A stretch of 64,000 nucleotides of DNA from an uncultured Acidobacteriota bacterium (GCA_963720545.1 OY970399.1:3008001-3072000), one strand, 5' to 3'. Numbered from the stretch's first letter, positions 10,989 to 63,255 are shown. Program-made: numbers and translations. Notes: generated from the sequence alone by a model not told the origin.

Positions 10989-11048
10989 ACCCCGCGGCGC
11001 CGGGGAATAACCGGCGCCCTCTCAGGTAAGTCCCATCAAGGAGCGTTC

Positions 11049-17102: not shown

Positions 17103-17124
17103 CCGGGGGTATCCCCGTAAGCTG

Positions 17125-17152
17125 TTGACCCGTCCTAGCCTTGGGTTACACT
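17125..17152 (+). promoter_or_regulatory. Sigma70-type promoter for the downstream surface protein
   Basis: TTGACC (17125-30), N16, TACACT (17147-52) in an AT-rich intergenic region. SD GGAG at 17221. Confidence 0.55.
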
Positions 17153-17233
17153 TGACGGCGAAGTTTGGTCGCTACTAAAGAAGTTACATATGGTCTACAT
17201 CTCGCCTCTTTTTTTAGTCAGGAGACACCAGTC

Positions 17234-32283: not shown

Positions 32284-33448
32284 CCGGCTGCGGCAGCGCC
32301 TGCGGCGCCACCACCCGGTTGCGGCCGCGGCCCTTCGCTTCGTAGAGCGCGCGGTCCGCTAGGATCACCAGCGAGTCGTCGCCGGTTGCCTGCATCGCGT
32401 CCAGCATGGCGATCCCGATCGAAACCGTCAGGCGCAGCACCAGCCCCTTCGAGACGTAGACCTCGGCGGCGGCGGCGGCGCGCAGCCGCTCGGCGACGCC
32501 GATCGCCTCCTGGAGGCTCGTCTCCGGCAGCACCACCAGGAACTCCTCGCCGCCGAATCGGCCCATCGAGTCCTGCGCGCGCAGGCACTGGGCCACGGTG
32601 CCGACGAACTGGCGCAGGACGTCGTCGCCGGCATGATGGCCGTGGCGGTCGTTGATCCTCTTGAAGTGGTCGATGTCCACCATCAGCACGCCCATGCTGG
32701 CACCGGAGCGCCGCGAGCGCGCTTCCTCCTTGCGCAGCAGCTCCTCGATGGTGCGGCGGTTGTAGGTTTCGGTGAGCGAGTCGAGGGTGGCGAGCCGGTG
32801 CAGCTCGCCGTTGGCGCGCTCGTGCAGCATCAGCACGAAGCCGAAGCCCAGCAGCACCAGCACGTGATAGGTGAAGAACGAAAGGTCCTGCAGGTAGGTG
32901 ACGGTGGTGGTCACGGGCGACGCCTGGTTGAGCGCGACGCCGAAGCCGCCGCGCGCGACTTCGGTGACGCCGGCGGCCAGGAAGCCGGCGCCGGTGAAGA
33001 AGTGCGCGATCGACGGCCGGCGGCGATCGGCGTAGAGGAGTTCGCCAGCGCTCGCGAGGTCCCAGGCGCCCTTGATCGCGACCATCAGGAAGCGGCCGCG
33101 TGAATTGGCGTCGTGCAGCAGTGCCAGGGTCGTGATCACCGGCACCGCGAACACCGTGAGGCCGCCCAGCCGCGACGGATACGACTTGCCCTTGAAGCGG
33201 CGGATCGCCTCGTAGAAGGACACCGAAGAGAAAACCATGAGCCCGTGCGCCACGGCGAGCCCCGGGAGCATCCAGCCTGGGCCACGCAGGAACAGGATGA
33301 TCGCGGCCGCCACCATGGCCCACAGTCCGCGCGTCCACTCGCGCGTGCCGAGGCCTGGGTGGGTGCGCTGCACCACTGTCATCCCGACGGCGCAGAACAG
33401 CAGCGTCAGCGCGGTGAAGAAGAACGCGGTGCGCAGGTCGAGGCTCAC
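32270..33448 (-). CDS. Membrane-anchored diguanylate cyclase (GGDEF)
   Basis: About 6 TM helices, then DSLT, DIDHFKRIND and RAQD (I-site) followed by RFGGEEF. GTG start overlapping the M20 stop. Confidence 0.92.
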   Translation of the reverse strand: MSLDLRTAFFFTALTLLFCAVGMTVVQRTHPGLGTREWTRGLWAMVAAAIILFLRGPGWMLPGLAVAHGLMVFSSVSFYEAIRRFKGKSYPSRLGGLTVFAVPVITTLALLHDANSRGRFLMVAIKGAWDLASAGELLYADRRRPSIAHFFTGAGFLAAGVTEVARGGFGVALNQASPVTTTVTYLQDLSFFTYHVLVLLGFGFVLMLHERANGELHRLATLDSLTETYNRRTIEELLRKEEARSRRSGASMGVLMVDIDHFKRINDRHGHHAGDDVLRQFVGTVAQCLRAQDSMGRFGGEEFLVVLPETSLQEAIGVAERLRAAAAAEVYVSKGLVLRLTVSIGIAMLDAMQATGDDSLVILADRALYEAKGRGRNRVVAPQALPQPATTG

Positions 33449-34740
33449 CTCTCTCCCATGCCGTTGAGGTCGAGCAGCGTCAGCGCGATCACCTTGGTGG
33501 CCGCGACCAGGTCGTCGATGCCGCACCACTCGTCGGGCTGGTGGGCGAGGTCGAGGATTCCCGGCCCGTAGGCGACGCAGTGTTCCAGGCCGCCGATGCG
33601 CGCGACGTGCTTCTGGTCGTAGGTGCCCGGGCTCGCGATGTGGGTGGCGGAGCGGCCCAGGACGCTCATCACCGAACGCTCGAGCGCCTGCACCAGCGGC
33701 GAATCGGGAGGAGCCGCCGAGGGATGCACCACCATGCGGTCCTTCAGTTCGTACTCGAATTCCGGGAAGCGGCGGCGCATGTCTTCGAGCAGCGCAGCGA
33801 TCTCCGCGCGTGCGGCATCGAAGCCTTCCTCGACGAGGAAGCGCCGGTCGAAAATGGCATGGCAGCGGTCCACCACGCAGGGGCTCTGGACTTCGCTGTC
33901 CGCCTGTCCGCCCCAGAGAGCGTTGACGTTGATGGTCGCGTGCCGGGCGCCGTCGGGCACCACCGGCACCGCGGTGCGGCGCGCGAACAGCGCCGGCTTC
34001 AGCTCGTTGCGCACCACCTCGAGAAACGCGGCCATCGACTCGACGGCGCTGCGGCCGAGAAACGGCATCGAGCCGTGCGCGACGCGGCCGCGCGTCGTCA
34101 CCTCGAACCAGTAGACGCCGCGGTGGCCGAGGCAGATGCGGTCGACGTTGAGCGGCTCCGGGATGATGACGTAGTCGGTGCGGCCCTTGCGGATGCGGCC
34201 GATCTCGCACAGGTGGGCGACGCCGGCGAAGCCGCCGCTCTCCTCGTCCACGGTGCCGCTCAGCTCGACGCTCCCCGGCAGCTCGATGCCGGCGCGGCGC
34301 AGGGCCTCGGCGGCGAACAGGCCGGCGGCGATGCCGGCCTTCATGTCACCGGTGCCGCGGCCGTAGATCCTGCCGTCCTTGATGGTGCCGGCCCACGGGT
34401 CGACGGTCCAGCCCTCGCCGGCCGGGACCACGTCGAAATGGCCGTTGATGTGGACGAGCGGCCCGCGCCCGGTGCCGGCGCGCGCGCCCACCACGTTGAC
34501 GCGCGGGTGCTGCCGGGTGTGCTCCTTGTGGCCGTCCGCCTCGATGTATTCGACGCCGAAACCGCAGCGCGCGAGGTGCCGCCCGATCGCGAGCGCGCCG
34601 TCGCGGTAGTTCTCGCCCGGCGGGTTGACAGTGGGAATGCGCACCAACTCCACCGTCAGGGCGACGATCTCTTCGCGCAGGTCGTCCACGGCGCGCAGCG
34701 CGCGCTCGGCAAGGGCGTGCGGCAGGCTGGTCGTCGTCAT
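33445..34740 (-). CDS. M20 family acetylornithine deacetylase/succinyl-diaminopimelate desuccinylase-like hydrolase
   Basis: NGHFDVVP, GRGTGDMK, DEESGG, IIPEP and AHQPDE motifs. Confidence 0.92.
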   Translation of the reverse strand: MTTTSLPHALAERALRAVDDLREEIVALTVELVRIPTVNPPGENYRDGALAIGRHLARCGFGVEYIEADGHKEHTRQHPRVNVVGARAGTGRGPLVHINGHFDVVPAGEGWTVDPWAGTIKDGRIYGRGTGDMKAGIAAGLFAAEALRRAGIELPGSVELSGTVDEESGGFAGVAHLCEIGRIRKGRTDYVIIPEPLNVDRICLGHRGVYWFEVTTRGRVAHGSMPFLGRSAVESMAAFLEVVRNELKPALFARRTAVPVVPDGARHATINVNALWGGQADSEVQSPCVVDRCHAIFDRRFLVEEGFDAARAEIAALLEDMRRRFPEFEYELKDRMVVHPSAAPPDSPLVQALERSVMSVLGRSATHIASPGTYDQKHVARIGGLEHCVAYGPGILDLAHQPDEWCGIDDLVAATKVIALTLLDLNGMGER

Positions 34741-34764
34741 GATTCAGCCGCCATTCTATGGCGG

Positions 34765-36951
34765 TCAGACGAGCCGCTTCAGCGTCCTCGGGCGCGGCCA
34801 GGGGCTCGGCACCTCGCCGGGCACGGTGGCGGGCAGGCCACACAGGCCGCGTGCCGCCTGCATGCCGGACATCACCGCCGATTCGACGGCGCCGCCGAGG
34901 CCGGTGAACAACCAGTCCCCGGCGAGGGCCAGGTTGGTGAAGCCAGAGGTGTCGGCTTCGAGGCGGTAGCGGGCGGTGCCGGGAAGGTCGAGGACGTAGC
35001 GTTCCGAGGGCGTGTAGTTGGCCCGTACGTATTGCGCCGCGAAGCGGGCCTCGCCGGTCTGGTTCGCGATGTCGCAGAGGAGGTCGAAGCGCAGCGCGCG
35101 CGGATCGTCGGGCGCGACCGAGGCGGGGTAGAGGTGCGCCAGGTAGCTCTGGCACCACGCGTAGGCGTTCGCCTCGGCAAGCTGCGTCTGCCCGGCGCCG
35201 TACCCGGGATCGGGGCCTTGCGGCATCCCCGGCGGGTTCAGCATCGGGCCGCAGAAGTAGACGATTGCCTGCGGCTCTTCCCCGGCAGGCCAGTCCTCGC
35301 GCGGGATCACGCCCGACATGTCTGACCAGCTCTCGAACGGCTGGCCGTAGGCGGTGCCTGTGGTGTTGCCCATGGGCCAGCCGAGGCGCCCCACATCGGG
35401 CTTCCACCAAAGTTGCAGCGCCTGTGTCTGGATGGTCTGCAGGTTCGCGACCATCTCGCGCCAGTCGCTGCTCTTCGCGATCAGGTCCGAACAGATGCCA
35501 GGAAACGCGCCGATCGAGATGCCGAGCACCGCGGCGTCGAAGTCGACGCCGGCGTGCATCTCGAGCGTGCCCACCGGAGCCCAGTTCGTCCACGGATCCT
35601 CGAGGTTGGCGCCGCGCGCCTGTATCGCCGCGGCCTGCGCCGGATCGAGCTGTGCGAAGAGCGGCTCGGAAGGCCAGCTCGGCAGGCCGTTCACCACCTG
35701 CAGCGGGTCGTACTCGGCGCGGCCCGGCGCCAGGTCGGCCTGGCGGCCGATGCGGATCGTTTCGACGCGCGTGCCGTCCGCGGCCACAGCGAGGTCCAGG
35801 ACCTCGTGGAAGAAGCGGAAGGTGACGCCGTTGCGCTTGCACATTTCGTAGATCGGCCCGAAGCACGCATCGCCCATCCCCGACTGCATCTTCCAGAACA
35901 AGGCGCCCTTGTATTCGCCGACCACGCGCAGCAGGTGCAGCAGGCCCATGCCGGCGCTCATCCGCGGCCGGCTGCGGTCGCCGTTCTCGTAGGCGAAGAA
36001 ATAGTCGTAGAAGCCGCGCAGCGGCGCCGACTGCAGCGCCAGCTCGGTCGCGCCGTGGCGGCCGAGCCATTCGGTGAGGTCGTAGTCGTCGATCGCCATG
36101 AAGCCGTGCTGGTCGATGCCGTCGGCGATCATGCCGCGGGCCGCGGCGAAACCGAGGTCGGCGAGCACGAACAGCCGGCGCGCTTCGTTGTCCTCGGCGA
36201 CCGCGCGCTCGGCGGCGTGCGCCAGCCAGCGCGCGAGCGTGTCGAGCAGGATGAGGATCAGCGAGTGGTCGCTGGCGCGCAGCGCCGGCGCGCCGGTGCT
36301 GGCGGCGCTGCGCACTTCCGCGTGCACGCGCTCGAAGACGTCGGCCGGGGTCGGGGGCGCGGGGGGCGCGAGGCTTGCGCTGCCGCCGAAGATCGAGGCG
36401 AGATGCACGAAATGGTGGCGCTCGCCGACCGCGTCGGTGAGTGCCTGCAGCACGCTCGTGTGCGGGAATGCGAACACCGCCGCCTTGATCCAGCCGACCA
36501 GCATCTCGATGTATTCCCAGACACTCGGCAGGCGCGCGCCCTCTCCGGGCACGCCGTCGTTGGTGGCAGACGGTACCGGCCAGGTCGCGAACCTGCCGTC
36601 CACCTGCTCCTGCCAGGTGACGAACGGGTGCGGGCGGAACGCCTCGTCCCAGGTGCGCAGCGGCGCGCCTTCTGGGCGGCCGAGAGCACCGTAGCAGTCC
36701 TGCATGAGGCGGAACGCGTTGTAGTAGAAGCCCCCCCAGACGTGCAGGCCGTGCTCCTCGATGCGGTTCGCGACGGCGGCATTGCGCCCGCTCGCACCCT
36801 TGCCGCCGAGCCGCCAGCCGATCTGGTAGACGGTGACGTCGAGCGCCGCGCGCAGCTCTGCGGTCGAAGAGAGGTAATAGGCAGCGCTCATGGCGCCGGC
36901 GCCGCCGCCGAGGATCGCGACCTTCTTCTTCGCCGCCTGCGGTTCGTTCAT
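34765..36951 (-). CDS. FAD/NAD(P)-binding oxidoreductase (COG3349-like), paralogue 2
   Basis: Rossmann motif ILGGGAGA, GWRLGGKGASGR, EEHGLH and C-terminal LAGDW...VESAV. Confidence 0.8.
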   Translation of the reverse strand: MNEPQAAKKKVAILGGGAGAMSAAYYLSSTAELRAALDVTVYQIGWRLGGKGASGRNAAVANRIEEHGLHVWGGFYYNAFRLMQDCYGALGRPEGAPLRTWDEAFRPHPFVTWQEQVDGRFATWPVPSATNDGVPGEGARLPSVWEYIEMLVGWIKAAVFAFPHTSVLQALTDAVGERHHFVHLASIFGGSASLAPPAPPTPADVFERVHAEVRSAASTGAPALRASDHSLILILLDTLARWLAHAAERAVAEDNEARRLFVLADLGFAAARGMIADGIDQHGFMAIDDYDLTEWLGRHGATELALQSAPLRGFYDYFFAYENGDRSRPRMSAGMGLLHLLRVVGEYKGALFWKMQSGMGDACFGPIYEMCKRNGVTFRFFHEVLDLAVAADGTRVETIRIGRQADLAPGRAEYDPLQVVNGLPSWPSEPLFAQLDPAQAAAIQARGANLEDPWTNWAPVGTLEMHAGVDFDAAVLGISIGAFPGICSDLIAKSSDWREMVANLQTIQTQALQLWWKPDVGRLGWPMGNTTGTAYGQPFESWSDMSGVIPREDWPAGEEPQAIVYFCGPMLNPPGMPQGPDPGYGAGQTQLAEANAYAWCQSYLAHLYPASVAPDDPRALRFDLLCDIANQTGEARFAAQYVRANYTPSERYVLDLPGTARYRLEADTSGFTNLALAGDWLFTGLGGAVESAVMSGMQAARGLCGLPATVPGEVPSPWPRPRTLKRLV

Positions 36952-39173
36952 TTCAGCCCGCCGACGATCGGGATCGCGATGCCCGACAGCGCCGCCGCCG
37001 CGTCCATCCCCGCCATCACCGCCGACTCGACACAGCCGGCGTTGATCGAGGTGCGCACCCAGTCACCGGCCAGGTACACGTTGTCGAAACCCGATTCGCG
37101 GCCGTGCAGGCGGAACTTCGAGGTACCGGGCAGCGACAGCACGTAGCGCTCGGTGGGATCGATGTTGACGCGGAAGTATTGCGCCGCGAGCCGCTCGGCG
37201 CCACTGCCGCTGCCGTGCAGCAGCTCGAGGTTGAGGGCGTTCGGCGCGCCGGGCACGGTCGCCTGCGGCCAGATATGGCCGACGTTCTGCTGCAGCCACT
37301 GCGCCGCGATCTCCTGGTAGCGCGCGAGTTCCCGCGCCGGAAAGCCATGGTCGCTGAACGGCGGGATCACTTCGGCATCGGGGAACTCGGAGCAGAAGTA
37401 TGCGAGAAAACTTGGTCCTCCTTGTGCGGGCCACGATTCGCGCGGCAGCAGGAAGCTCATGTCCGCCCAGGTGTTGAGGAGTTCCGCGTAGGCCGAGACG
37501 ATGCGCGGCGGCACCGGCGCGCCGAGCGCCGCGGCATCCGGGTCGAGCCACAGCTGCATGCTCGCGGTCTGCACGGTGGCGACGTTCGCGCACATGTCGT
37601 GAAACGCCTGGCTCGCGTCGCGCAGCTCCTGCGCGACGTCCTTGAAGGCGCCGAGCGAGATGCCGAGCACCACGTCGTCGAAGTCGGTGCCGCGCGTGAG
37701 CGTCACCGGAACACCGACAGGTTCGGCCCACGCCGACTCGAGGTTGATGCCGCTCGCCTTCAGCTTCGCGCCGTCGTGCAGCTGCGCGTAGAGCGGCTCC
37801 GCCGGCCAGCAGGGCATGCCCTTCACGTCCACGAGCGGCGCGTAAACCCCGTCGGGGTCGAGGACCTCCGCCTGGAGCGTGAGCTCGATGCTCTCGACCG
37901 AAGGCACCTTGGCGCCAGGCGGCGGCGGCGCGACGTGCAACCGTTCCACCTTGTGGAAGAAGGCGAACTTCACGCCGCGACCGCGCAACGCGAGGAAGAG
38001 AGGCGCGAACACGATGTCGCCCATGCCGCCCTGCATCTCCCAGAAGAGCGCGCCCTTGAACGTCAGCACCAGCCGCATCACGCCGTTGGTGGCGGTGCCC
38101 GCTTCCACTTCCATCGCGTCCGAGCGGCCGCCGCGAAAGCCAAAGATGTAGTCGTAGATGCCGCGCACGAATGCCGAGCCCACGGTCGCCGGCGAGCCGC
38201 CGTGCCTGGCGAGCCAGGCGCGCCACTCGATGTCGTTGATCACCGTGAAGCCATGGAACAGCACGCCATCCGCGACCATGCCGCGCGCGGTGGCGAGCCC
38301 GAGGTCGCAGATGACGTAGAGGCGGCGCACCTCGTCGGGGAGGTCGAGCCGTCCCGCGCCCGCGCTGATGCGGGCGTGCGCCTCGCTGAGGAAGTTGACG
38401 AGCGAGGCGTGTTCGACGGCGAAATGCTCGGCCACGTCCTCCTCGAGCCAGCCGGCGAAGCGCAGCGTGGCGTGCAGGATGTCGTGGGTCGAATAGCCGC
38501 GCAGCGGCGAGGCCAGCGGCGCGCGCGCCGGCGGCGTGCCGCTGGTTCCCGGCGTGAGCGCCGCCCAGGCGTCGAGCGGTTCGGAAGCCGGCGCCTGCGC
38601 CAGCACGGTGTTCATCTGCGCCGCCAGCGGCACGGCGCTCGGCGGCCCGGGCGCTTCGATGTCGTGGTCGCCGATCTGGTGCACGATCCACTCGAGCACC
38701 AGCTTCACGTACTGCCACGGCGAAGGCACCTCGCCGCCGCGTCCCGGCCAGCCGCCGTCTTGCGGAAAGGTGAGGGGCCAGCTGCGCCAGCCGTTGTCGA
38801 TCCATTCCTGGAGCATCACCGCGCTGTGCTGCTTGAAGGCGCCGGCCTTGAACCAGGCGGGAGCCTCCCTGGCGGCGCCGCCTTCGGCGCGCTGCGCCGC
38901 CACCGCCGCGGCCGTCGCCGGCATCGCGGCGTAGCACTCGTCCATCACCTTGAAGGCGTTTTCGTAGAAGCCGCCCCAGACGTGCAGGCCGTGCTCCTGG
39001 ATGCGATCGCCGGAATCGGCGTTGCGGCCGCTGGCGCCCTTGCCGCCCAGCCGCCAGCCCATCTGGTACACCGTGATCTCGTAGTTGTCGGCCGCGCCGG
39101 GCAGGCCGCAGAGTGCCCAGGCGGCTGCCAGGCCGCCGGTGCCGCCGCCGAGCACCGCGATCTTCTTCTTCAT
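36948..39173 (-). CDS. FAD/NAD(P)-binding oxidoreductase (COG3349-like), paralogue 1
   Basis: MKKKIAVLGGGTGG, GWRLGGKGASGR, QEHGLH and LAGDW...NAGCVESAV. ATGA overlaps at both ends. Confidence 0.8.
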   Translation of the reverse strand: MKKKIAVLGGGTGGLAAAWALCGLPGAADNYEITVYQMGWRLGGKGASGRNADSGDRIQEHGLHVWGGFYENAFKVMDECYAAMPATAAAVAAQRAEGGAAREAPAWFKAGAFKQHSAVMLQEWIDNGWRSWPLTFPQDGGWPGRGGEVPSPWQYVKLVLEWIVHQIGDHDIEAPGPPSAVPLAAQMNTVLAQAPASEPLDAWAALTPGTSGTPPARAPLASPLRGYSTHDILHATLRFAGWLEEDVAEHFAVEHASLVNFLSEAHARISAGAGRLDLPDEVRRLYVICDLGLATARGMVADGVLFHGFTVINDIEWRAWLARHGGSPATVGSAFVRGIYDYIFGFRGGRSDAMEVEAGTATNGVMRLVLTFKGALFWEMQGGMGDIVFAPLFLALRGRGVKFAFFHKVERLHVAPPPPGAKVPSVESIELTLQAEVLDPDGVYAPLVDVKGMPCWPAEPLYAQLHDGAKLKASGINLESAWAEPVGVPVTLTRGTDFDDVVLGISLGAFKDVAQELRDASQAFHDMCANVATVQTASMQLWLDPDAAALGAPVPPRIVSAYAELLNTWADMSFLLPRESWPAQGGPSFLAYFCSEFPDAEVIPPFSDHGFPARELARYQEIAAQWLQQNVGHIWPQATVPGAPNALNLELLHGSGSGAERLAAQYFRVNIDPTERYVLSLPGTSKFRLHGRESGFDNVYLAGDWVRTSINAGCVESAVMAGMDAAAALSGIAIPIVGGLK

Positions 39174-39928
39174 GAGCGCGCTGCCCTCTCGCCGTGGCCT
39201 GCCCACGACGGCGGTCCCAGCGTCCACGGCACCTCGATGCGGTAGGCACCGTAAGGCGACTCGTCTACGCCGGGAAACTGGTGCTCCGCCACTGGTACGC
39301 CGGGGGCGAAGGAGTTCGCGATGCGGATGTCGAGCGACACCGGCTGAACGCGAGCTCGCTCCATGTGGAAGATGAGGTGCGAGTAGATGAACGAACCGAA
39401 GAGACCGGGGCCCATGAACGGCAGGTGGAAGACGGGGGTCGTGCGGCTCGTGTTGGGATAGTCGGCGAGCGAACCCCAGGGACCGCGGTCGCCGAAGCTC
39501 GCTGTCAGGAGCGGCGTGCCCGCGATGAGGCTCGCGATGTCGTACGCGGAGCTGCTGCTGCGCACGCGCGCCCGCCGCTTCGGGTAGCCATAGAACCAGC
39601 CGGCGACCACGAACAGCCAGCTGTCGAGAAAGAGTCGCGGCATGAAGACGAACGGCCCCGGCCAGGGCGCCTTGCCGGGAGCGCGCTCGACGAACGGCAC
39701 CGCCAGCAGGAACTCGAGGTAGGCGCGGTCGTCGAGGCGGAAGGGCCCGCTATGGACGTTCACGCCCCACTCGCGGCCGAGCATGAAGACGAGCGGGTGC
39801 TCGTCGGGACCGGTGACCTGCTGCTCGGCCAGCGCCATGCCCGGCAGCAGCATCGCGGCGGCCAGCGCCCGCGGCGCGGGCCACAATCCGAAAACGGCGG
39901 TGAAGGTTCCGGTCGCGTAGAGCGCCAC
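39170..39928 (-). CDS. Acetoacetate decarboxylase-like (ADC superfamily) protein
   Basis: YLE motif and GWFYGYPK (position of the Schiff-base lysine) in a 252-aa beta-rich protein. Confidence 0.65.
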   Translation of the reverse strand: MALYATGTFTAVFGLWPAPRALAAAMLLPGMALAEQQVTGPDEHPLVFMLGREWGVNVHSGPFRLDDRAYLEFLLAVPFVERAPGKAPWPGPFVFMPRLFLDSWLFVVAGWFYGYPKRRARVRSSSSAYDIASLIAGTPLLTASFGDRGPWGSLADYPNTSRTTPVFHLPFMGPGLFGSFIYSHLIFHMERARVQPVSLDIRIANSFAPGVPVAEHQFPGVDESPYGAYRIEVPWTLGPPSWAGHGERAARS

Positions 39929-39931
39929 GGC

Positions 39932-42034
39932 TCAGAACTTCACGCGCACCTGCGCCGTGACCTTGCGGCGGATGATGTCGCCGAAGATGTGCTGCTGCAC
40001 GGCACGGTCGAACAGGTTGGTGGCGTTCAGCGCCACTTCCGCCTTCTGCCGCGGGAAGCGCCAGCCGAGCGCGGCATTGACGAGCGCATAGCCGGGGGTC
40101 GCGCCCCAGAAGCGGCTGTCGAGGACATCGGCCCAGAACGCCGGGCTGGTGGCGGTGATGCCGGCGGAGCCGAAAAAACGCGGCCGCTGCCACGCGATCG
40201 AGAGCCCCGCCTGGTGACGCGGTGGCTTGTTGAGCGTGAGCGGGATGAGCGAGTCGTTGGTGATCCGCGGCGGTGCCTGCAGCGTGTACGAGGCGCGCAC
40301 CGTGACACCAGCGGCCACGTCCATGTCGAGCGAGGTTTCGAGGCCGCGGTCGCGGACCCTGCCGACGTTGACGAAGCCGAACGTCTCGGGAAGCGTGAAG
40401 GGCGGCACCGTGAACGGCGGCAGCGGCCAGCCGGGCGGCGGATTCTCCGGGCCGAAGAACGCGGTCGGCACGAACGCGATGTTCTCGCTGATCTCGTTCT
40501 GGTAGGCGGACACGGTCGCGATTGCACGCGCGCCAAGCTCCGCGGTCCAGCCCACCTCCACCGAGTGCACGTACTCCTCGCGCAGGTCCGGGTTGCCGAG
40601 CGCCCTGCTGATGAACAGGAACGGCGTCGTGCCCAGCGGGATGACGTTCGGCACCGGCGTGTCGAGGAAGTTCTCGAGCAGCGATGGCGAGCGGTAGGCG
40701 CGGTTGTAGGCGAGGCGCAGCTGCTGCTTCGCGGTCGGCTTGAAGAGCACGCTGGTGCGCGGCGAGAAGGTGGCGCCGAGCGTGTCGAAGTAGTCGAGCC
40801 GGCCGCCGAACGTGAGGCTCACCTTCGGCGCCAGCGTGAACAGGTCCTCGGCGAAGACGCCGGCATCGTTGCGCGCGTTCTCGTTCGGCGCGAGGTTGAT
40901 GTCGAAGCGGTTGGCGCGCAGGTTGCCGCCGGTCACCAGCACGTGGCGCGTGCCGAACAGGTGGCGCGCGGTGAGGTCGAGCACGTAGGTGTCGTTGATG
41001 AAGGTGAAGTCGAGGCCGTTGATGAGGTTGGGCGCGTCGCCGCGCAGCCCGTTCCAGTAGGCCTTCGCCTCGAGGCCGCCGTGGCTGTAGCTCGCCTCCG
41101 CATACGAGACGTGCGCGCCCTGTTTGATGCCGAACGGACCGATCGTCGTGTGCACGATGCCGCTGGTGCCGCCGATGCCGGCGCGAAACGACCACGCCGT
41201 GCCCGGTTCCGGGTCGTAGTCGACACGCAGGTCGCCTTTCGGCTGCCGCGTGCCGAGGTTCGCGAAGTCGTAGCCGGCCGGCAGCGGATCGCCGTTCGGC
41301 AGCGTCTTCCTGCGTTGCCATTGATCCTGGCGGTAGTAGCTGGCGCCCGCCTTGTAGCTGAGCTTCTCGAAGGCGCGCGCGTAACGCCCCGAGACGGAGC
41401 GCGTGCCGAGCTCGCCGCCGCCGAGGCTCACGAGTCCGCCCTCGATCTCACGCGGCGGCTTGGTGCGCAGGTTGATGACGCCGGAGAGGGCGTTGGCGCC
41501 CCACACCGCGGAGCCGGGTCCGCGCGCCACCTCGATGTCCTTGATCTCGTCGAAGTCGAGCGGGATGTAGTCCCACAGCACGACGCCGTAGAAGTCGAGG
41601 TAGATCGAGCGGCCGTCGAGCAGCACCAGCTGGCTGTTCTCGGTGACGCCGGTTGCGCCGCGGGCGCGGATGCTGACGTCGCGTGCCGAGGTCTGGATGA
41701 CGTTCACGCCGGGGACGCCGCGCAGCAGGTCGCCGTAGTTGTCGGCGGGTGTGGTCTCGATCTGCCGCGGGCCGAGGACGCTGATGGCGACCGGCGAATC
41801 GAACAGCAACTGCTCGGTGCGCGAGGCGGTGACCACCACCGTTTCGGAGAGCCTGGCGATACCGGTGGTCGCGTCGGTGGTGGCGACTGCGGCCGGTTCG
41901 GGTGAAGGCGAGGGCGCGGGTGTTGGCGAAGACTGCGCGGTTGCGGCGGGGGCCTGGGCTCGCAGCGGCGCGCTCGCAAGCAGGAGGAGAACGCCACAGC
42001 CCACGACCGCTCGCAGCGCCGGCGGCATTTTCAT
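39932..42034 (-). CDS. TonB-dependent outer-membrane receptor
   Basis: Signal peptide, TonB box ETVVVTA, plug motifs LLRGVPGV, LLDGR and IEVARGPGSAVWGANALSGVINL, NLFD, and C-terminal Phe. Confidence 0.92.
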   Translation of the reverse strand: MKMPPALRAVVGCGVLLLLASAPLRAQAPAATAQSSPTPAPSPSPEPAAVATTDATTGIARLSETVVVTASRTEQLLFDSPVAISVLGPRQIETTPADNYGDLLRGVPGVNVIQTSARDVSIRARGATGVTENSQLVLLDGRSIYLDFYGVVLWDYIPLDFDEIKDIEVARGPGSAVWGANALSGVINLRTKPPREIEGGLVSLGGGELGTRSVSGRYARAFEKLSYKAGASYYRQDQWQRRKTLPNGDPLPAGYDFANLGTRQPKGDLRVDYDPEPGTAWSFRAGIGGTSGIVHTTIGPFGIKQGAHVSYAEASYSHGGLEAKAYWNGLRGDAPNLINGLDFTFINDTYVLDLTARHLFGTRHVLVTGGNLRANRFDINLAPNENARNDAGVFAEDLFTLAPKVSLTFGGRLDYFDTLGATFSPRTSVLFKPTAKQQLRLAYNRAYRSPSLLENFLDTPVPNVIPLGTTPFLFISRALGNPDLREEYVHSVEVGWTAELGARAIATVSAYQNEISENIAFVPTAFFGPENPPPGWPLPPFTVPPFTLPETFGFVNVGRVRDRGLETSLDMDVAAGVTVRASYTLQAPPRITNDSLIPLTLNKPPRHQAGLSIAWQRPRFFGSAGITATSPAFWADVLDSRFWGATPGYALVNAALGWRFPRQKAEVALNATNLFDRAVQQHIFGDIIRRKVTAQVRVKF

Positions 42035-42089
42035 GATGAGAAGGTGGCTGGAGGCTACTGTGGCCTCCGTTGCAGCGTCAAGGTTCGGT

Positions 42090-45000
42090 TCAGGCCTGAG
42101 GCACGTGCAGGTCGGCCATGCGCGCGGGGTTCGTGATTTCCTGGCTGCGCATCCAGGCCGTCGCCGAGGCGACGAGGGCCTCGCCTTGGGGTCCGCCTTG
42201 CCACTGCCCCCGCCGGTAGCGCGCCGCGGCCGCGAAGCCCGCCATCCCGGCCGCTTCCAGGGCGGTCTCCGCGCGCCCCAGGGTGGCGGCAGCATCCTGG
42301 CGGCTCCCGCGGCGCGCCGCGATGGCCGCGCGCACCACCGAGGCAAGCGCCGAGGCGAAGGCGGCACCCTCGCCCTCGAGCGCCGCCGCCGCGCGTTCGG
42401 CCGCGCGCAGTCCGGAGACGCTGTCGGTGCCGCGCCGCTCCAGCGCGCCGCGCGCGGTGAGGTAGTTGATGAAGCTGCGGATCACCAGGCTGCGCAGCAG
42501 GAACGAGCCGCGCAGCTTGCCCTTCTCCTTCTCGAGACGCGGCGCCACCTCGGCGCCGCTGCCTTCGTAGAAGTCGATGTAGGAGCGCATCCACAGCGCG
42601 TTCACGTGCTGCAGCTGGTAACCCTCGACCGAGAAGCGCGACAGCGCTTCGTCCACGTCGCGGCGCGCCGCGAACGGGTCGTCGGCCATCAGCCGGGCGT
42701 GCGAGCTCATGAAGCTCTGCATGTTGGTCGCGGCATTGCGATCGCCGCGCTCGTCCGCCTCCTTCCAAAGCGCCGCCGAGCGGCTCTTCATCAATGCGAA
42801 CTCGCCGCGATGCACGAGCCCCCACAGGGAGAACGAGTTCGCGGTGTTCAGTTCCCAGGTGACGCCGGTGCAGTGCGAGCGGAACGAGTCGGCCGCCTGG
42901 TCGAGGAGCGCGCACGCCGGCACCCAGTTGCCGAGCACGAACTCGGTGACGCCGCGGCCCAGCAGGCACATCGCGCGCGCGTACAACCCGCCGGTGTCCT
43001 CGGCCAGCGTTGTCGCCGCCTGCAGCAGTTCCAGCGAGCGCGGGCGCGCGGCCGGGCCGGCATTGCCGGTCACCACCGCCTCCCAGGCGAGCGCGCGCAC
43101 CACGCGCGTCGGCTCGCCGGCGTCGAGCGCGTCGATGACGTTGCGCGACTGGAAGGCGGTGCCGGCCACCGTGTCGAACATGCTGAGCCCTGCGGAGGCC
43201 ACCCAGGTGACGTCGACGCGCCGCAGCAGCGCCGGCGGCACGTCGGCCGCGGCGCGCCTGCGATAGCCAATGCCGCGCAGCTTCAGGCGCGCGCGGTTCA
43301 TGAGCAGCTGCGCGATGGTGGCGGCGCGGGTCGTCGGCATCCGCCGGCCGACGTGGCGCAGCAGCTGGCGCAACACCGCCCGGCCCTCGTCGAGATGGCC
43401 GGTGATGCAGTACTGCCACGCCGCGCGCTGGCGCAGCTCGAAGGTGCGTTCGAAGTCGAGGTCGCCGCTCGCGCGCTCGTACTCGCGCGCCGCCTCGAGG
43501 CCGTGGCCGGCGTTCGCGAGCGCGTCGGCGAGGCGGCCGCGCAGCTCCGAAAGTTCGTCGCCCTGCGGCGCTCGCAGGCTGAGCGAGCGGCGGAACAGCC
43601 GCGCGGCACGCTCGAACGCGAGCGCCTCGGCGGCGCGCTGGCCGGCGGCTTCGTAGTGGAGCGCCGCTTCGGCGGTTTCGCCGGCGCCCTCGAAGTGCGT
43701 GCCGATGGCCTCGGCATCGGCGCGCTCCGAGACGAGCAGCGTGGTGGCGAGCCGCAGGTGGCAGGCGCGCCGCTCGCCGGCCTCGAGGCGGGTCGTTACC
43801 AGCTCGCGGATGCGGTCGTGGTACGCCTCCACCAGGTCGCGGTCGCCCGGCCCGGTGGTCTTTACCAGATGGCCGACGCGCAGCGCCGCCAGCGCACGGC
43901 GCGGATCGGCCGGCAGCCCGGACGCCTTCACCGCGTCGCCCTGGCTGAGCGGCGACGCCGACACCGCGATCGTCTCGAGCAGCCGCCGCGACTCGGTGCT
44001 GAGCCGTGCGACGCGCGAGGAGAGCACGTCGTCGAGGGTCAGTGCGTCCCCGGCCGCGGCGCCGCCTTCGCCGAGGTGCTGTGCGAGTTCGTGGACGAAG
44101 TAGGGGACGCCGCGCGACTCGCGCGCCACCCGTTCGGCGAGCTCGCGGTCGCGCAGGCCATGGTGGGCGAGCAGCAGCGCGGCGAGTTCGACGGCCTGCT
44201 CGTGGTCGAGCGAGTCCACCACGATGTCGCGGCTCTTCAGCCCTGGCGCCGCCTGCACCGCGACGAAGTCCTTGAGCAGCGGGCTGGTGGTCGCGTGCTC
44301 GCTGCGGTAGAGGGCGGCGAGCAGCAGGCGCGGCGCGTCCGGCGGCCGCAGGATCTCGGCGAGCAGCGCGGCGCTGTCGGCGTCGCCCCACTGCATGTCG
44401 TCGATCGCGATCACCAGCGGGTGGCGGTCGCCGATGCGGGCGAGCAACTCGCGGAGCGCCGTGAACGCGCGGCGCCGCAGCTCCTGGCGGTCGGGAACCT
44501 CGTCGCCGCGCAGCGGCGCCTCCTGCACCGCGTCGGCGCGCTTCAGCACCGGGAAGATCCGCGCCAGCGCGTGGATGTCGCGCGGCATCAGCTGCAGCGC
44601 ATCGCCGATGCGCATGCTCGCGAGGAACGAGCCGAGGCCGTCCATCACCGAGTCGAGCGCCTTGAACGGCACGGTCTCGCCCTCGTAGCAGCGGCCCTCG
44701 AGCACCACCGCGCCGAGCGGCTTCAGAGAATCGATGAAGCGGCGCACCAGGAAGCTCTTGCCGGCACCCGACTGGCCGCGCACGTGCACCGTGATCGCCG
44801 AGCCCCTGGCCATCGCCGCGTAGGCGGCCTGCAGCTGGGCGAGGTGCGCGCCGCGGCCGACGATCACCGCCGAGTGGGGTGGTGCGGCGGCCGCAGCCGG
44901 CGCAGCGGCGGCGGCTCCCACGGCCGCCAGCACCTGCTGCGACGTGGGCCGAGCTTCCGGCTGTACGCGCAGCAGGCTCGCGCACAAGTCGTCGAGGTCT

Positions 45001-45872
45001 TGCGGCACGGCGCTCGCGAACATGGATGGGCGCGGGCCATCCTTCTCGCGCTTGGCGCGGCGCACGCGCTCTGCCGGCCCCTCGAACGGCAGGCGGCCGG
45101 TGAGGCACTCGAACAGCAGCGTGCCGACCGCATACCAGTCGGCCGCCGCGGTCAGGCGTCTTCCGCCCTCGGCCTGTTCGGGCGCCATGTAGGCGGCGGT
45201 GCCGGCGATCATCCGGCTGCTCTCCTTCTGACGCGGCGCGAGGTCGGTGGCGAGCCCGAAGTCGAGCAGCACCACGTGACCCTCCGCCGTGATGAGCGTG
45301 TTCGACGGCTTGATGTCGCAGTGCAGCTTGCCGGCGTCGTGCAGTGCCGCCGCCGCCTCGACCAGCTGGCGCAGGCACGGCCGCAGCCGCGCGACCACTT
45401 CCTCCGCCAGTTCGCCGCGCGTCTGCGCAGCAAGCAACTCCGTGTCAGCAGGCGACAGCGAGAGCGATGCGGAAGAAACGGCCGCGGGGGAGAGCGGTTG
45501 CGGGCTCGAGTACGTGCGCTCCATGGTGATCGCCGAGATCCCGCCCTCCGGCGGTGTGGCACGCGCTGCGATCGCCTCCGGCCCGAGGCGCACGTACTGG
45601 GTGAAATCGTGGCCGGCGACGAGCTCCATGGTGAAGAACCATTCGTCGCCGTCGGAGAAGAGCTCGTAGAGCGCCGCCAGGTTCGGATGGGTGACGTCGG
45701 CGAGCGAGCGGAACTCGTTCTTGAAGCGCGCGAGCGCATCGGCCTCGACCAGGGGCAGGGTCTTGAGGGCAACGCGCTCGGAACGCTCCTTGTCGAGCGC
45801 CTCATAGACCACGCCCATGCCGCCTGCGCCGAGGCGCTTCACGATCTCGAAGCGGCCGTGTGCGACTGACAA
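42090..45872 (-). CDS. Ser/Thr protein kinase fused to STAND-type AAA ATPase and helical/TPR-like C-terminus
   Basis: GAGGMG, VALK, HCDIKPSN, DFG and GTAAYMAPE, then Walker A GQSGAGKS, Walker B LVIAIDDMQWGD, GVPYF (GxP motif) and HDRIRE. Confidence 0.9.
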   Translation of the reverse strand: MSVAHGRFEIVKRLGAGGMGVVYEALDKERSERVALKTLPLVEADALARFKNEFRSLADVTHPNLAALYELFSDGDEWFFTMELVAGHDFTQYVRLGPEAIAARATPPEGGISAITMERTYSSPQPLSPAAVSSASLSLSPADTELLAAQTRGELAEEVVARLRPCLRQLVEAAAALHDAGKLHCDIKPSNTLITAEGHVVLLDFGLATDLAPRQKESSRMIAGTAAYMAPEQAEGGRRLTAAADWYAVGTLLFECLTGRLPFEGPAERVRRAKREKDGPRPSMFASAVPQDLDDLCASLLRVQPEARPTSQQVLAAVGAAAAAPAAAAAPPHSAVIVGRGAHLAQLQAAYAAMARGSAITVHVRGQSGAGKSFLVRRFIDSLKPLGAVVLEGRCYEGETVPFKALDSVMDGLGSFLASMRIGDALQLMPRDIHALARIFPVLKRADAVQEAPLRGDEVPDRQELRRRAFTALRELLARIGDRHPLVIAIDDMQWGDADSAALLAEILRPPDAPRLLLAALYRSEHATTSPLLKDFVAVQAAPGLKSRDIVVDSLDHEQAVELAALLLAHHGLRDRELAERVARESRGVPYFVHELAQHLGEGGAAAGDALTLDDVLSSRVARLSTESRRLLETIAVSASPLSQGDAVKASGLPADPRRALAALRVGHLVKTTGPGDRDLVEAYHDRIRELVTTRLEAGERRACHLRLATTLLVSERADAEAIGTHFEGAGETAEAALHYEAAGQRAAEALAFERAARLFRRSLSLRAPQGDELSELRGRLADALANAGHGLEAAREYERASGDLDFERTFELRQRAAWQYCITGHLDEGRAVLRQLLRHVGRRMPTTRAATIAQLLMNRARLKLRGIGYRRRAAADVPPALLRRVDVTWVASAGLSMFDTVAGTAFQSRNVIDALDAGEPTRVVRALAWEAVVTGNAGPAARPRSLELLQAATTLAEDTGGLYARAMCLLGRGVTEFVLGNWVPACALLDQAADSFRSHCTGVTWELNTANSFSLWGLVHRGEFALMKSRSAALWKEADERGDRNAATNMQSFMSSHARLMADDPFAARRDVDEALSRFSVEGYQLQHVNALWMRSYIDFYEGSGAEVAPRLEKEKGKLRGSFLLRSLVIRSFINYLTARGALERRGTDSVSGLRAAERAAAALEGEGAAFASALASVVRAAIAARRGSRQDAAATLGRAETALEAAGMAGFAAAARYRRGQWQGGPQGEALVASATAWMRSQEITNPARMADLHVPQA

Positions 45873-45924
45873 GTGGAGGCGATTCTAGCCGCCGGGCACT
45901 CATGCTAGGGTCGCGGTCGCTGCG

Positions 45925-47322
45925 ATGAACACCCACCTTGTGCTGCTCGCGGCGTACGCGTTGCTGCAGATCGGGCTGGGCCTGTGGATTGGCCGCCGGG
46001 TGCGCAGCGCCGGCGACTTCTTCGTTGCCGGGCGCAGCCTGCCGCCGGTGCTGCTGTTCGCGACCCTGGTCGCCGCCAACATCGGCGCGGGCTCCACCGT
46101 GGGCGCCACCGGCCTCGGCTTTCGCGATGGGCTGGCGGCCTGGTGGTGGGTCGGCTCCGCCGCGCTTGGCTCCGCCGTTCTCGGCCTCTGGGTCGGCCCG
46201 CGCATCTGGCGGCTCGCAAAGCAGCACGACCTGCAGACAACAGGCGACTTCCTCGCCTGGCGGTACGGCGAGTCGGTGCGCGGCATCGTCGCGGTGCTGC
46301 TGTGGTTCGGCACAATCGCCATCCTCGCCGGCCAGCTGATCGCGATGGGGCTCATCATCCAGACGGTCGCCGGCGTGCCGAAGGCGACGGCGTGCATCAT
46401 CGGCGGCATCGTCGCGACCTTGTACTTCACGGCCGGCGGCCTGCTGTCGTCGGCCTGGGTCAACATGGTGCAGGTGTGCGTCAAGCTGGTCGGCTTCGGC
46501 ATCGCGCTCGCGGTGCTGTTCACCCGCATAGGCGGCCTGTCCGGCCTGCACGCGGCCACCCCCGCCGGCAGCTACTGGAACTTCTGGTCGGGCGGCGCCT
46601 CGGGCATCGTGTACATCGGCTTGCTGGCACCCGCATTCGTGGTATCGCCGGGACTCATCCAGAAGATCTACGGCGCGCGCGACGAGCGCACCGTGCGCAT
46701 CGGCGTGCTCGGCAACGCGGCCGTGCTGTTCGCCTTTGCAATCGTGCCGGTTTTCCTCGGCATGATCGCGCGCGCGCTGCATCCCGGACTGGCGGCGCCC
46801 GAACTGGCGCTGCCGACGCTGTTCACCCAGGACCTGAGCCCGCTGCTCGGCACCCTCGGCCTCGCCGCCGTGGTCTCAGCCGAGCTCAGCACCATCGACG
46901 CGGTGCTGCTGATGCTCGCGACCTCGCTTTCGAAGGACCTCTATGGCCGCTACATCAACCGGCAGGCGACGAGTGCCCAATTGCTTTTGGTGTCGCGCTT
47001 CGCAGCCGCCGGCGGCGGAGTTCTCGGCGTGGTGCTCGCGATCGTCGGCGAGTCGGTCATCGGCCAGCTGAGCCTGTTCTACGCGGTGCTCGCCGTCTGC
47101 CTGTTCGTGCCGGTGGTCGCTGGCCTCTACGCGCGCCGCTTCGCGACTCCCGAGGCTCTGGCGGCGATCGCCGCCGGCGTCGCGGCGCTGTTCGCCGCCC
47201 GCCTCGGCGGCGGCATCCCGGGGTGGCCGTTCTTCTCGCCATCGCTCCTTGGCATCTGTGCCAGTGCTGTCGCGGGCGTCGCGCTGCTGTTGCTGCGCAA
47301 GCCGACCGTCAGCGCGCGATAA
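45925..47322 (+). CDS. Sodium:solute symporter family transporter
   Basis: DFFVAGRSL, AANIGAGSTVG, YFTAGGL and SAELSTID motifs; about 13 TM helices. Confidence 0.9.
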   Translation: MNTHLVLLAAYALLQIGLGLWIGRRVRSAGDFFVAGRSLPPVLLFATLVAANIGAGSTVGATGLGFRDGLAAWWWVGSAALGSAVLGLWVGPRIWRLAKQHDLQTTGDFLAWRYGESVRGIVAVLLWFGTIAILAGQLIAMGLIIQTVAGVPKATACIIGGIVATLYFTAGGLLSSAWVNMVQVCVKLVGFGIALAVLFTRIGGLSGLHAATPAGSYWNFWSGGASGIVYIGLLAPAFVVSPGLIQKIYGARDERTVRIGVLGNAAVLFAFAIVPVFLGMIARALHPGLAAPELALPTLFTQDLSPLLGTLGLAAVVSAELSTIDAVLLMLATSLSKDLYGRYINRQATSAQLLLVSRFAAAGGGVLGVVLAIVGESVIGQLSLFYAVLAVCLFVPVVAGLYARRFATPEALAAIAAGVAALFAARLGGGIPGWPFFSPSLLGICASAVAGVALLLLRKPTVSAR

Positions 47323-57139: not shown

Positions 57140-57143
57140 CAAA

Positions 57144-57160
57144 TGAAACGTTTCTGAAAC
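57144..57160. promoter_or_regulatory. Putative operator in the divergent GT-C / AraC spacer
   Basis: Palindrome GAAACGTTTC (57145-54) and direct repeat TGAAAC at 57144 and 57155 in a 45-bp AT-rich gap. Confidence 0.45.
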
Positions 57161-57184
57161 TAAACTAGCATCCTGACTCCGGAC

Positions 57185-58027
57185 ATGAAACCGCGCCCTG
57201 GCGTGCCGCTCGCCTCGACACCCGCCGGTCTGCCGTCGTTCGGCGGCGCCGTGCTGCGCTGGCGGCGCGTTGGCGGGCTGAGCCTGGCGGAGATCCAGCA
57301 CGACGGCCCGCGCGAGCTGCGTGTTCATGTCGTTGAAGAGGCGCGCTTCGTGCTGGTGCTGCGTGGCCGTGGGGACGTCGAATGCGGCGGCCAGCGCCTG
57401 CGGTTCCAGGCCTCGAGCGTCGTCTTCGAACCGGCGGGCTGCGCCTCCGTCTGGCGCTTCGACCAGGGCACCGTGTGCCTCGCGGTGTCGGTGAGCGATG
57501 CGGTGCTCGCGCGCGCCCGCGAGGCGAGCGCCGCCTTCACCCGGCCCGCGGTGTTCGCCGACGGCCTGCTGCTGCACCTCGCACGCAGGCTCTACGGCGA
57601 GTTCCGCCTGCGCGACGAGGCGTCGCGGCTCGCGGTGGAGAGCCTGGTGCTTGGTGTGCTCGCCGAGGCGGCGCGCCGCCAGTCGCGGCCGCGCACCCAG
57701 CCGGTCGCCCCCGAATGGCTGGCGCTGGTGCTCGAAATCCTGAACGCACGCTTCACCAGCGACCTTGGGCTCGCGCGCGTCGCCGCAGAAGTCGGCATCC
57801 ACCCGGTGCACCTCGCGCGCACCTTCCGCCGCCACCAGCAATGCACGGTCGCCGACTACGTGCGGCGGCTGCGCATCGACTACGCGTGCCAGCAGCTGAG
57901 CCAGTCGCGCTTATCGCTCACCGATGTGGCGCTCGCATCAGGGTTCTGCGACCACAGCCACCTGTGCCGCCACTTCAAGCGCGAAACCGGCCTCACCCCC
58001 GCCCGGTACCGCAGCCTCCACCGCTGA
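57185..58027 (+). CDS. AraC family transcriptional regulator
   Basis: C-terminal VAAEVGIHPVHLARTF...VALASGFCDHSHLCRHFKRETGLTPARYR; cupin-like N-terminus. Confidence 0.92.
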   Translation: MKPRPGVPLASTPAGLPSFGGAVLRWRRVGGLSLAEIQHDGPRELRVHVVEEARFVLVLRGRGDVECGGQRLRFQASSVVFEPAGCASVWRFDQGTVCLAVSVSDAVLARAREASAAFTRPAVFADGLLLHLARRLYGEFRLRDEASRLAVESLVLGVLAEAARRQSRPRTQPVAPEWLALVLEILNARFTSDLGLARVAAEVGIHPVHLARTFRRHQQCTVADYVRRLRIDYACQQLSQSRLSLTDVALASGFCDHSHLCRHFKRETGLTPARYRSLHR

Positions 58028-63164: not shown

Positions 63165-63255
63165 CGGACCTCCATCGAAGACCCGAGCTTGGGCTTTGAT
63201 GGCGGCGCGGCCGTGTGACCGTGCACACAGCCGCGGGCGAAAGATTCGGGACGCG

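Follow-up and report, generated by a model that had tools for sequence, protein, structure and literature searches.

An acetoacetate decarboxylase-fold enzyme and a desaturase-like flavoprotein as the core of a probable small-molecule signalling module in an uncultured Acidobacteriota bacterium

What might five closely packed genes accomplish together when they bring a kinase-bearing STAND protein, an outer membrane receptor and a set of flavin- and Schiff-base-type enzymes into one locus? The question is posed by a 64,000-nucleotide stretch of DNA from an uncultured Acidobacteriota bacterium (GCA_963720545.1, OY970399.1:3008001-3072000), here called the window. Positions 34765-45872 of the window, which has a G+C content of about 70%, are filled by five co-oriented minus-strand open reading frames (ORFs) whose third-position G+C (GC3) of 0.84-0.92 is of the coding type. 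They encode a Ser/Thr kinase-STAND protein, a TonB-dependent receptor (TBDR), a protein with the acetoacetate decarboxylase (ADC) fold and two flavin adenine dinucleotide (FAD) proteins, flavoproteins A and B. We conclude that the five genes probably form an undescribed small-molecule signalling module. Judged from the sequences, its core is a two-enzyme unit that combines the ADC-fold Schiff-base enzyme with a phytoene desaturase (PDS)-like FAD enzyme, the latter duplicated in the window.

The neighbourhoods of the enzymes in other genomes provide the strongest evidence for this unit. A one-genome-per-species scan seeded with the flavoprotein alignment returned at least 601 relatives, from which we retained the best 80 loci together with as much as 10 kb of sequence on either side; their ORFs were called and clustered, and hidden Markov models (HMMs) for the sensor and ADC classes were built from these clusters. 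An ADC-like protein and the flavoprotein occur together in 72 of the 80 loci, as separate, adjacent genes in 37 and as a single fused protein in 35, with the ADC part N-terminal in 29 of the fusions and C-terminal in 6. No ADC-like partner was found in 8 of the 80 loci, some of them at contig ends. Most ADC partners in this set are of a long type (310-340 aa), related to the short type of the window at an hhalign probability of 91% (E of 1e-6) with the key lysine and glutamate kept, and all eight proteins of about 1000 aa in the short-type family are flavoprotein-ADC fusions, and two others have the reverse order. Obligate pairing, together with fusions in both orders, shows that the ADC-fold enzyme and the flavoprotein act as a single unit. 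No further enzyme family recurs across distant lineages among the 80 loci; the other recurrent neighbours are additional signalling parts (REC, Hpt, GGDEF and HD).

The ADC-like gene of the window (39170-39928, minus strand) has a GTG start and encodes 252 aa. This protein has no direct Pfam or NCBIfam match and does not reach PF06314 at E ≤ 0.01. An exhaustive search found 466 representative clusters related to it at E ≤ 0.001, and PF06314 is matched by 49 of the 66 aligned family members at E ≤ 1, at best with an E value of 2.4e-10. The family profile matches Sbi00515 (4zbo, E of 0.0056) with the Schiff-base lysine aligned, GfaK falling on GFPK and YlEF on YREF. The AlphaFold2 (AF2) model (pLDDT 94.5) has 24 Foldseek matches at E ≤ 0.001, and those listed are all ADC-superfamily chains with a probability of 1.0, including MppR (4jm3, E of 9.8e-13), Sbi00515, ADC (3bgt) and Swit_4259. 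Family, profile and structural matches thus confirm the ADC nature of the protein, as the original prediction, made by a model from the sequence, had claimed.

With the characterised enzymes Sbi00515 (an aldolase-dehydratase; 4zbo, 4zbt and 6eej), MppR (4jm3) and ADC (3bgt and 3bh2), the window protein has the fold in common (Foldseek probability 1.0, TM-score 0.55-0.62), and the Schiff-base lysine and the glutamate of Sbi00515 align with Lys117 and Glu72, both of which are at least 90% conserved among the 66 ADC-like sequences. However, it is 12-16% identical to these enzymes, misses the Pfam ADC model, and belongs to a family that has its own His44-Pro45 motif and is the obligate partner of, or fused to, a flavoprotein. 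To our knowledge, such a partnership or fusion has not been reported for characterised members of the superfamily. The protein belongs to a diverged offshoot of the superfamily and lies outside the ADC family in the strict sense. Two published sources offer a lead here: a paper on cyanoglobules lists Anabaena all0736, a homologue of NXD1, as an "acetoacetate decarboxylase family protein" (PMC12923008), and a review gives the activity of NXD1 as unknown (PMC8770946). ADC-family proteins may, on this lead, act in carotenoid or lipid-droplet contexts.

Flavoprotein A (36948-39173, minus strand, 741 aa) is a COG3349-like member of the PDS/amine-oxidase superfamily with a helical insert of about 200 aa, and flavoprotein B (34765-36951, minus strand, 728 aa) is its paralogue, as had been proposed; the two are 39% identical over about 745 columns (E of 4e-156). 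Both give generic FAD-fold matches in Pfam (NAD_binding_8 and Amino_oxidase), GxGxxG and a C-terminal LAGDW can be read in the translation, and the FAD motifs and about 70 invariant columns of the family alignment are kept in both paralogues. An Fe-S cluster, which the COG3349 name used by some sources implies, was rejected because the family alignment contains a single nearly invariant cysteine and no cluster motif. The PDS/ZDS models TIGR02731 and TIGR02732 match only the N-terminal dinucleotide-binding motif (15.3-23.1 bits against cut-offs of 569-622), the flavoproteins score 39.2 and 49.5 bits with the HpnE model TIGR03467 (cut-off 283), and no protein of the module passes a curated equivalog model. 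A PDB sequence search with the flavoprotein profile found N-terminal dinucleotide-fold matches and no solved structure close by sequence; among named Atlas clusters, oleate hydratases and HpnE-like proteins come nearest.

The structural comparison is more specific. The AF2 model of flavoprotein B (pLDDT 91.8) has rice phytoene desaturase (5mog) as its top match (Foldseek E of 6.6e-18; VIA-align Z of 28.4, root mean square deviation 3.0, 456/466 residues aligned), which bears out the desaturase-type relationship that had been suggested, and the next VIA-align entry is a putative L-amino-acid oxidase of Leptospira (Z of 23.3). PDS draws a long hydrophobic substrate from the membrane. Flavoprotein B has the FAD Rossmann fold and the substrate domain in common with PDS, but it is 13-16% identical, is about 260 residues longer and contains a helical insert of about 200 residues that PDS lacks. 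Moreover, unlike PDS, its family pairs with an ADC-fold protein and occurs in organisms and contexts without carotenoid genes nearby.

Catalytic competence of the pair is favoured by the conservation of Lys117 and Glu72 and by the FAD motifs kept in both flavoproteins. A hydrophobic substrate is suggested by the structural kinship to PDS, by the oleate hydratase and HpnE clusters, and by the FadL-type channels that adjoin the enzymes in 4 of the 80 loci (L011, L020, L025 and L049). No signal peptides were found in the window enzymes or in the homologues inspected. In a FastTree phylogeny, flavoprotein A groups with one copy each of loci L079 and L046 and with the single copy of Archangium (L024) at a support of 100. 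Flavoproteins A and B have separate orthologues in L079 and L046 (support 100), so the duplication is old. The same tree splits a clade linked to STAND proteins from one linked to 7TMR-DISM proteins. The flavoprotein family tends toward two to three copies in Acidobacteriota, and in the acidobacterial loci L079 (4826-7827) and L048 (5501-8985) a third copy is split over two reading frames, which could reflect a frameshift, a pseudogene or an assembly error.

In 62 of the 80 loci, the enzymes have a large signalling protein no more than 10 kb away: a STAND protein in 27 and a 7TMR-DISM protein in 36, with both in L022. The median distance to the enzymes is about 140 nucleotides for STAND and about 950 nucleotides for 7TMR-DISM proteins. 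When the nearest sensor is counted, the STAND partners span eight phyla (Acidobacteriota, Bacteroidota, Chloroflexota, Cyanobacteriota, Myxococcota, Pseudomonadota, Spirochaetota and Verrucomicrobiota), and the 7TMR-DISM partners come from Pseudomonadota and one Deinococcota locus. Most STAND partners carry an N-terminal Ser/Thr kinase and some a cyclase, and some add a C-terminal GAF-histidine kinase, SpoIIE or guanylate cyclase part; the 7TMR-DISM partners are fused to GGDEF or a hybrid histidine kinase. Individual loci illustrate this range. In L003 (12232-16404), a guanylate cyclase replaces the kinase, and in L076 (12040-17247), L026 (12128-17338) and L008 (12208-17775), a kinase-AAA_16-GAF arrangement comes before a cyclase, SpoIIE phosphatase or histidine kinase part. 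Overall, the output domains vary (Pkinase, guanylate cyclase, SpoIIE, GAF-histidine kinase, GGDEF and hybrid histidine kinase-Hpt) around a constant enzyme pair, a pattern that fits a role on the input side. In most Pseudomonadota the partner is a 7TMR-DISM protein instead of a kinase, which makes protein phosphorylation, the output first proposed for the locus, one output of several.

A constant small unit that meets many partner architectures is also what stand-alone sensor proteins look like. The ADC-flavoprotein unit could itself be the receptor, passing on its substrate-bound state or the redox state of its flavin by direct contact to the kinase, cyclase, GGDEF or histidine kinase protein encoded beside it, and releasing no diffusible product. 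Flavin is a natural reporter of redox state or ligand, and the link is one-sided, in that the partner families are widespread without the unit. We nevertheless consider this unlikely, as both enzymes keep full catalytic equipment that a pure receptor would not need, and as 7TMR-DISM proteins are thought to sense through their membrane and periplasmic parts while the enzymes are cytoplasmic.

The kinase-STAND gene of the window (42090-45872, minus strand, TTG start) encodes 1260 aa and is the presumed sensor and output protein of the module. Both domains claimed for it are well supported by Pfam (Pkinase, E of 6.7e-43 and 147.4 bits against a cut-off of 31.7; AAA_16, E of 3.7e-23 and 83.3 bits against 32.6). 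The kinase motifs GAGGMG, VALK, HCD, DFG and APE are intact in the translation, HCD marking a non-RD kinase, and the NTPase motifs are Walker A GQSGAGKS and Walker B VIAIDD. The helical repeat that had also been claimed is less direct: no TPR match was found in the protein at E ≤ 0.01, but homologues align over residues 521-1260 and the homologue in L086 has TPR matches, so the long C-terminal region is predicted to be helical. Orthologues with 40-49% identity adjoin ADC and flavoprotein genes in L046, L079 and L073. The architecture is single-copy in its own genome, where the other 38 matches cover the kinase domain only, and abundance therefore does not explain its adjacency to the enzymes.

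Could the kinase-STAND and TBDR genes nevertheless stand next to the ADC and flavoprotein genes by chance, or through shared horizontal transfer? A reciprocal test from the STAND side bears on this possibility. Full-length homologues of the sensor half (residues 521-1260) occur in 24 of the 400 genomes of a phylum sample; G423 is counted in this tally and in no other result. The short ADC was found in one of 400 other genomes of that sample (G762, E ≤ 1e-15) and in none of 400 other genomes of the class (window query, E ≤ 1e-10). Among 20 regions around STAND homologues from 19 other Acidobacteriota genomes, the enzymes lie beside the STAND gene in G762, in the order flavoprotein-flavoprotein-STAND-ADC on one strand, and in G445, in the order STAND-ADC with a convergent flavoprotein gene. 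As the two orders differ, the linkage of enzymes and STAND survives rearrangement. STAND genes also stand beside the enzymes on the metagenome contigs L086, L088, L089, L093, L095, L097 and L100. The original prediction had named as grounds for its refutation a kinase and TBDR that never accompany the ADC and oxidoreductase genes elsewhere. These data do not refute it: kinase-AAA_16 STAND proteins accompany the genes in 27 of the 80 loci, in eight phyla, on metagenome contigs and in G762 and G445, and TonB receptors do so in 10 Alteromonadales loci. Synteny with L046, L079, L073 and G762 ties the kinase-STAND, ADC and both flavoprotein genes well together.

A chance assembly draws some support from the STAND family, most of which lacks the enzymes, and from the TBDR, whose insertion is seen only in the window lineage. 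TBDR-like genes near STAND genes in 7 of the 20 acidobacterial regions could also be chance. Sensors lie close to the enzymes in 62 of the 80 loci, in many phyla and despite rearrangements; the window genome holds a single such STAND gene alongside 27 Plug genes in 4.09 Mb; and the 55- and 3-nucleotide gaps and ATGA overlaps in the window argue for co-transcription. We therefore regard two unrelated sets of genes as very unlikely.

The TBDR gene (39932-42034, minus strand, ATG at 42034) encodes the receptor that had been predicted: a 700-aa protein with a Plug domain (E of 2e-18, 67.3 bits against a cut-off of 23.9) and a TonB_dep_Rec_b-barrel domain (E of 1.2e-42, 147.8 bits against 27), a signal peptide and a C-terminal phenylalanine. 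Its best NCBIfam match is the TOL_0244 family at 185.6 bits, under the cut-off of 645 bits, and it reaches no substrate-specific NCBIfam equivalog. A TonB receptor was found in 11 of the 80 loci, directly after the flavoprotein in 10 Alteromonadales and 4.9 kb away in L006. Co-occurrence of a TBDR with the enzymes is thus seen elsewhere, but its position between kinase and ADC has so far been seen only in the window lineage, save for a 32-residue TBDR-like contig end in L086 (order: TBDR-like end, flavoprotein, kinase/AAA_16/TPR protein, long-type ADC, flavoprotein). The identical five-gene set was seen in no other locus examined. The junctions on both sides of the TBDR, with the kinase and with the ADC gene, are spanned by contigs of other public runs (X1 records 4 and 6, X6 record 30 and X10 record 14, X1 possibly being the source sample), and the position of the TBDR is therefore not an assembly artefact. 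We include the TBDR in the module because of its spacing and because TBDR and FadL genes are independently associated with the enzymes elsewhere; the receptor is a lineage-specific addition and, like the twin flavoproteins, a feature of the window lineage.

In the acidobacterial regions L121, L123, L127, L128, L129, L130 and L133, TBDR-like genes (CarboxypepD_reg and OMP_b-brl_4, about 930-1110 aa) lie beside STAND homologues, mostly convergently. Because these genomes hold many genes of this kind and convergent pairs predominate, they were not counted as support; their position may be chance in TBDR-rich genomes.

Direct reading of the sequence agrees with the gene layout first described. A 55-nucleotide gap separates the kinase stop from the TBDR ATG, the TBDR/ADC junction reads TGA-gcc-GTG with a 3-nucleotide gap, and ATGA overlaps join ADC to flavoprotein A and flavoprotein A to flavoprotein B. 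Gaps and overlaps of this kind argue for co-transcription of the five genes. The 52-nucleotide region between the kinase gene and a divergent sodium:solute symporter gene upstream (45873-45924) holds the TAGAAT that had been called promoter-like. The hexamer is indeed present, 8 nucleotides upstream of the kinase TTG start, but a sigma-70 consensus scan of 33000-46300 found 0 promoters, and its promoter role is putative. A terminator scan gave two terminator-like sites, both inside coding sequence and fewer than in shuffled sequences.

Several considerations weigh against the module as we propose it. The HMMs used to assign the sensor and ADC classes came from the very loci in which these classes were then counted. 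The raw counts overstate independence, because they come from the best 80 of the 601 relatives and include many close kin (14 Pseudoalteromonas, and 11 Oxalobacteraceae plus one metagenome-assembled genome of Burkholderiaceae). In 18 of the 80 loci, no sensor lies in the flank, although 9 of these have less than 4 kb of flank on one side. From the STAND side the link is one-sided: the enzymes adjoin only 2 of the 20 STAND regions, and the flavoprotein profile was absent from 8 further STAND-bearing genomes in a search that matched both positive controls (G762 and G445). The enzymes are missing near most STAND homologues, so the sensor family does not need the enzyme pair. The proposal also requires that sensors of two unrelated architectures respond to one and the same product. 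In the closest relatives (L046, L079 and G762) no TBDR was found at this place, and the operon structure is deduced from gene spacing.

The importers and the oxidase-like fold raise another alternative, in which the locus takes up and catabolises or detoxifies a scarce hydrophobic or nitrogen-containing nutrient. The flavoenzymes would oxidise it, for example from amine to carbonyl, the ADC-fold enzyme would decarboxylate or cleave the product, and the sensor would only regulate the pathway or be unrelated to it. TBDR or FadL importers stand beside the enzymes in 15 of the 80 loci as well as in the window. After PDS, the flavoprotein most resembles amine and L-amino-acid oxidases in structure (Z of 21-23), and known ADC-superfamily enzymes use keto acids made by oxidases, as does MppR. 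In the window, moreover, an M20 deacylase gene and the symporter gene adjoin the cluster, but neither is conserved with the module. Neither enzymes for later catabolic steps nor transcription factors of the classical kind were seen repeatedly beside the pair, and the outputs of the adjacent proteins are second messengers or phosphorylation, not DNA binding. Enzyme fusion and a very patchy distribution, with the short ADC in 1 of the 400 other genomes sampled from the phylum, are easier to reconcile with an accessory function than with nutrition. Catabolism therefore seems to us a doubtful explanation of the locus.

The M20 gene just mentioned, of the ArgE/DapE type, occupies 33445-34740 on the minus strand and starts 24 nucleotides downstream of flavoprotein B. 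It was rejected as a part of the system, as were the symporter (SSF) and DinB/MDMPI-like neighbours, because none of them recurs in related loci. Most of the 24-nucleotide gap is filled by a hairpin (34748-34764) with a perfect 7-bp stem and a 3-nucleotide loop, which contains a second TAGAAT and may be an attenuator or an RNA-stability element. Membership in a genomic REP-like family was rejected, as the 17-mer has one exact copy in the genome and one site with two mismatches. YceI-like genes occur a few kilobases from the enzymes in Oxalobacteraceae loci.

STAND NTPases and kinases also occur in defence systems, and a conflict response was among the functions first suggested. In such a system, the STAND/NLR-like sensor would detect infection and unleash a flavoenzyme that makes peroxide or a toxic metabolite. 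The patchy distribution would suit this, and the kinase domain matches the PADLOC models mad6, PD-T4-6 and MkoA. However, a check for known defence systems with PADLOC shows none: the matches in PADLOC-DB 2.0 are to the generic kinase domain only, and the TBDR, the ADC protein, both flavoproteins and the M20 protein match 0 families. The 7TMR-DISM, GGDEF and GAF-histidine kinase partners are typical of environmental signalling, and there is no mobile-element or defence-island context within the window. Nothing points to a conflict or NLR-like role, and we consider an anti-phage function highly improbable.

The absence of further enzymes, the varied outputs and the recurrent importers are best fitted by a unit that feeds the signal of a small, probably hydrophobic, molecule into the sensor. 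We tentatively propose, as a reasonable possibility, that the two enzymes, which are cytoplasmic, act on a hydrophobic small molecule and in doing so either generate or use up the ligand of the sensor next to them, both chemistry and ligand being presumed. For the window, we infer a chain of import, modification and sensing. A hydrophobic precursor would cross the outer membrane, here through the presumably co-transcribed TBDR, and would be oxidised or desaturated by the cytoplasmic, probably membrane-peripheral, flavoenzyme or flavoenzymes. The ADC-fold enzyme would trap the resulting carbonyl on Lys117 and then decarboxylate, condense or cyclise it. The helical sensor region at the C-terminus of the STAND protein would detect the product, or the loss of the substrate, and nucleotide-dependent STAND switching would turn on the N-terminal Ser/Thr kinase. 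The order of reactions, a hydrophobic substrate, the product as sensor ligand and the targets of the kinase are presumptive parts of this scheme; its observed parts are the gene layout, the protein folds, the conservation of catalytic residues, the pairing or fusion of the two enzymes and the repeated proximity of sensors and outer-membrane importers.

Comparison with known systems helps to place the module. Genes for H-NOX and NosP adjoin histidine kinases or diguanylate cyclases with varied outputs, and there, as here, a small constant unit lies beside signalling enzymes of varied output whose families are far broader than the association. In the module, however, that unit is a catalytically equipped two-enzyme FAD unit and not a haem gas sensor. 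Quorum-sensing synthase/receptor gene pairs such as CqsA-CqsS and LuxI-LuxR likewise place an enzyme gene beside a presumed cognate sensor, and a hydrophobic ligand is plausible in both cases. Unlike in those pairs, the enzymes of the module have no sequence or fold kinship to known autoinducer synthases, and its sensors are STAND kinases or 7TMR-DISM proteins. Among STAND Ser/Thr kinases and regulators, PknK of M. tuberculosis and the MalT/AfsR type have in common with the kinase-STAND protein an N-terminal effector, Walker A and B motifs in an AAA_16 NTPase, and an extended helical/TPR region for sensing; the protein studied here differs in lacking a DNA-binding domain and in being tied to the enzyme pair in a subset of lineages. 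Our literature searches, like the original prediction, found no described pathway of this composition and no paper on the pair or the module, although subscription journals and unsearched supplements could hold one.

Several further genes were noted elsewhere in the window. A plus-strand gene at 28555-32283 encodes a protein of 1242 aa in which a 2-oxoacid acyltransferase domain (E2 catalytic) is joined to an entire 2-oxoglutarate dehydrogenase E1; this OdhA/Kgd-type architecture is better known from Actinobacteria. The plus-strand region 10989-18775 holds a gene for a 2037-aa bacterial alpha-2-macroglobulin, followed by a 539-aa ORF without a Pfam match. Two further ORFs, of 858 aa (55334-57910, minus strand) and 221 aa (62691-63356, minus strand), likewise lack a Pfam match and have GC3 of the coding type. 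Outside the window, some 300 kb away from the cluster at G000:C1:3378248-3379850, lie two tandem genes of the squalene/phytoene-synthase family, which equip the organism to make C30 or C40 isoprenoid backbones.

Members of the enzyme family are found in species that include Leptospira, Pseudoalteromonas, Janthinobacterium, Microcoleus and myxobacteria. A bolder idea, which we think improbable as matters stand, is that the ADC/PDS-like unit synthesises messengers of a new, lipid-derived class. Such a messenger might be a ketone or enone that arises when flavin oxidation is followed by Schiff-base decarboxylation or condensation, and the STAND kinases and 7TMR-DISM proteins would be its cognate receptors. 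This idea would imply a previously unrecognised pathway, possibly acting from cell to cell, in more than 600 bacterial species, with TonB and FadL channels importing the messenger or its precursor.

If the proposed signalling role of the enzyme pair is correct, it would define a widespread enzyme-plus-receptor module. A flavoprotein family with at least 601 species representatives would gain a first function, as would two branches of the ADC superfamily that are so far unstudied. Candidate ligands would also emerge for orphan sensors of two large classes, the Ser/Thr-kinase STAND proteins and the 7TMR-DISM receptors, the latter of which control cyclic di-GMP and phosphorelays in bacteria that form biofilms. 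Because the enzymes occur as natural fusions and in tractable hosts (Janthinobacterium, Pseudoalteromonas and Shewanella), the module would be directly testable.

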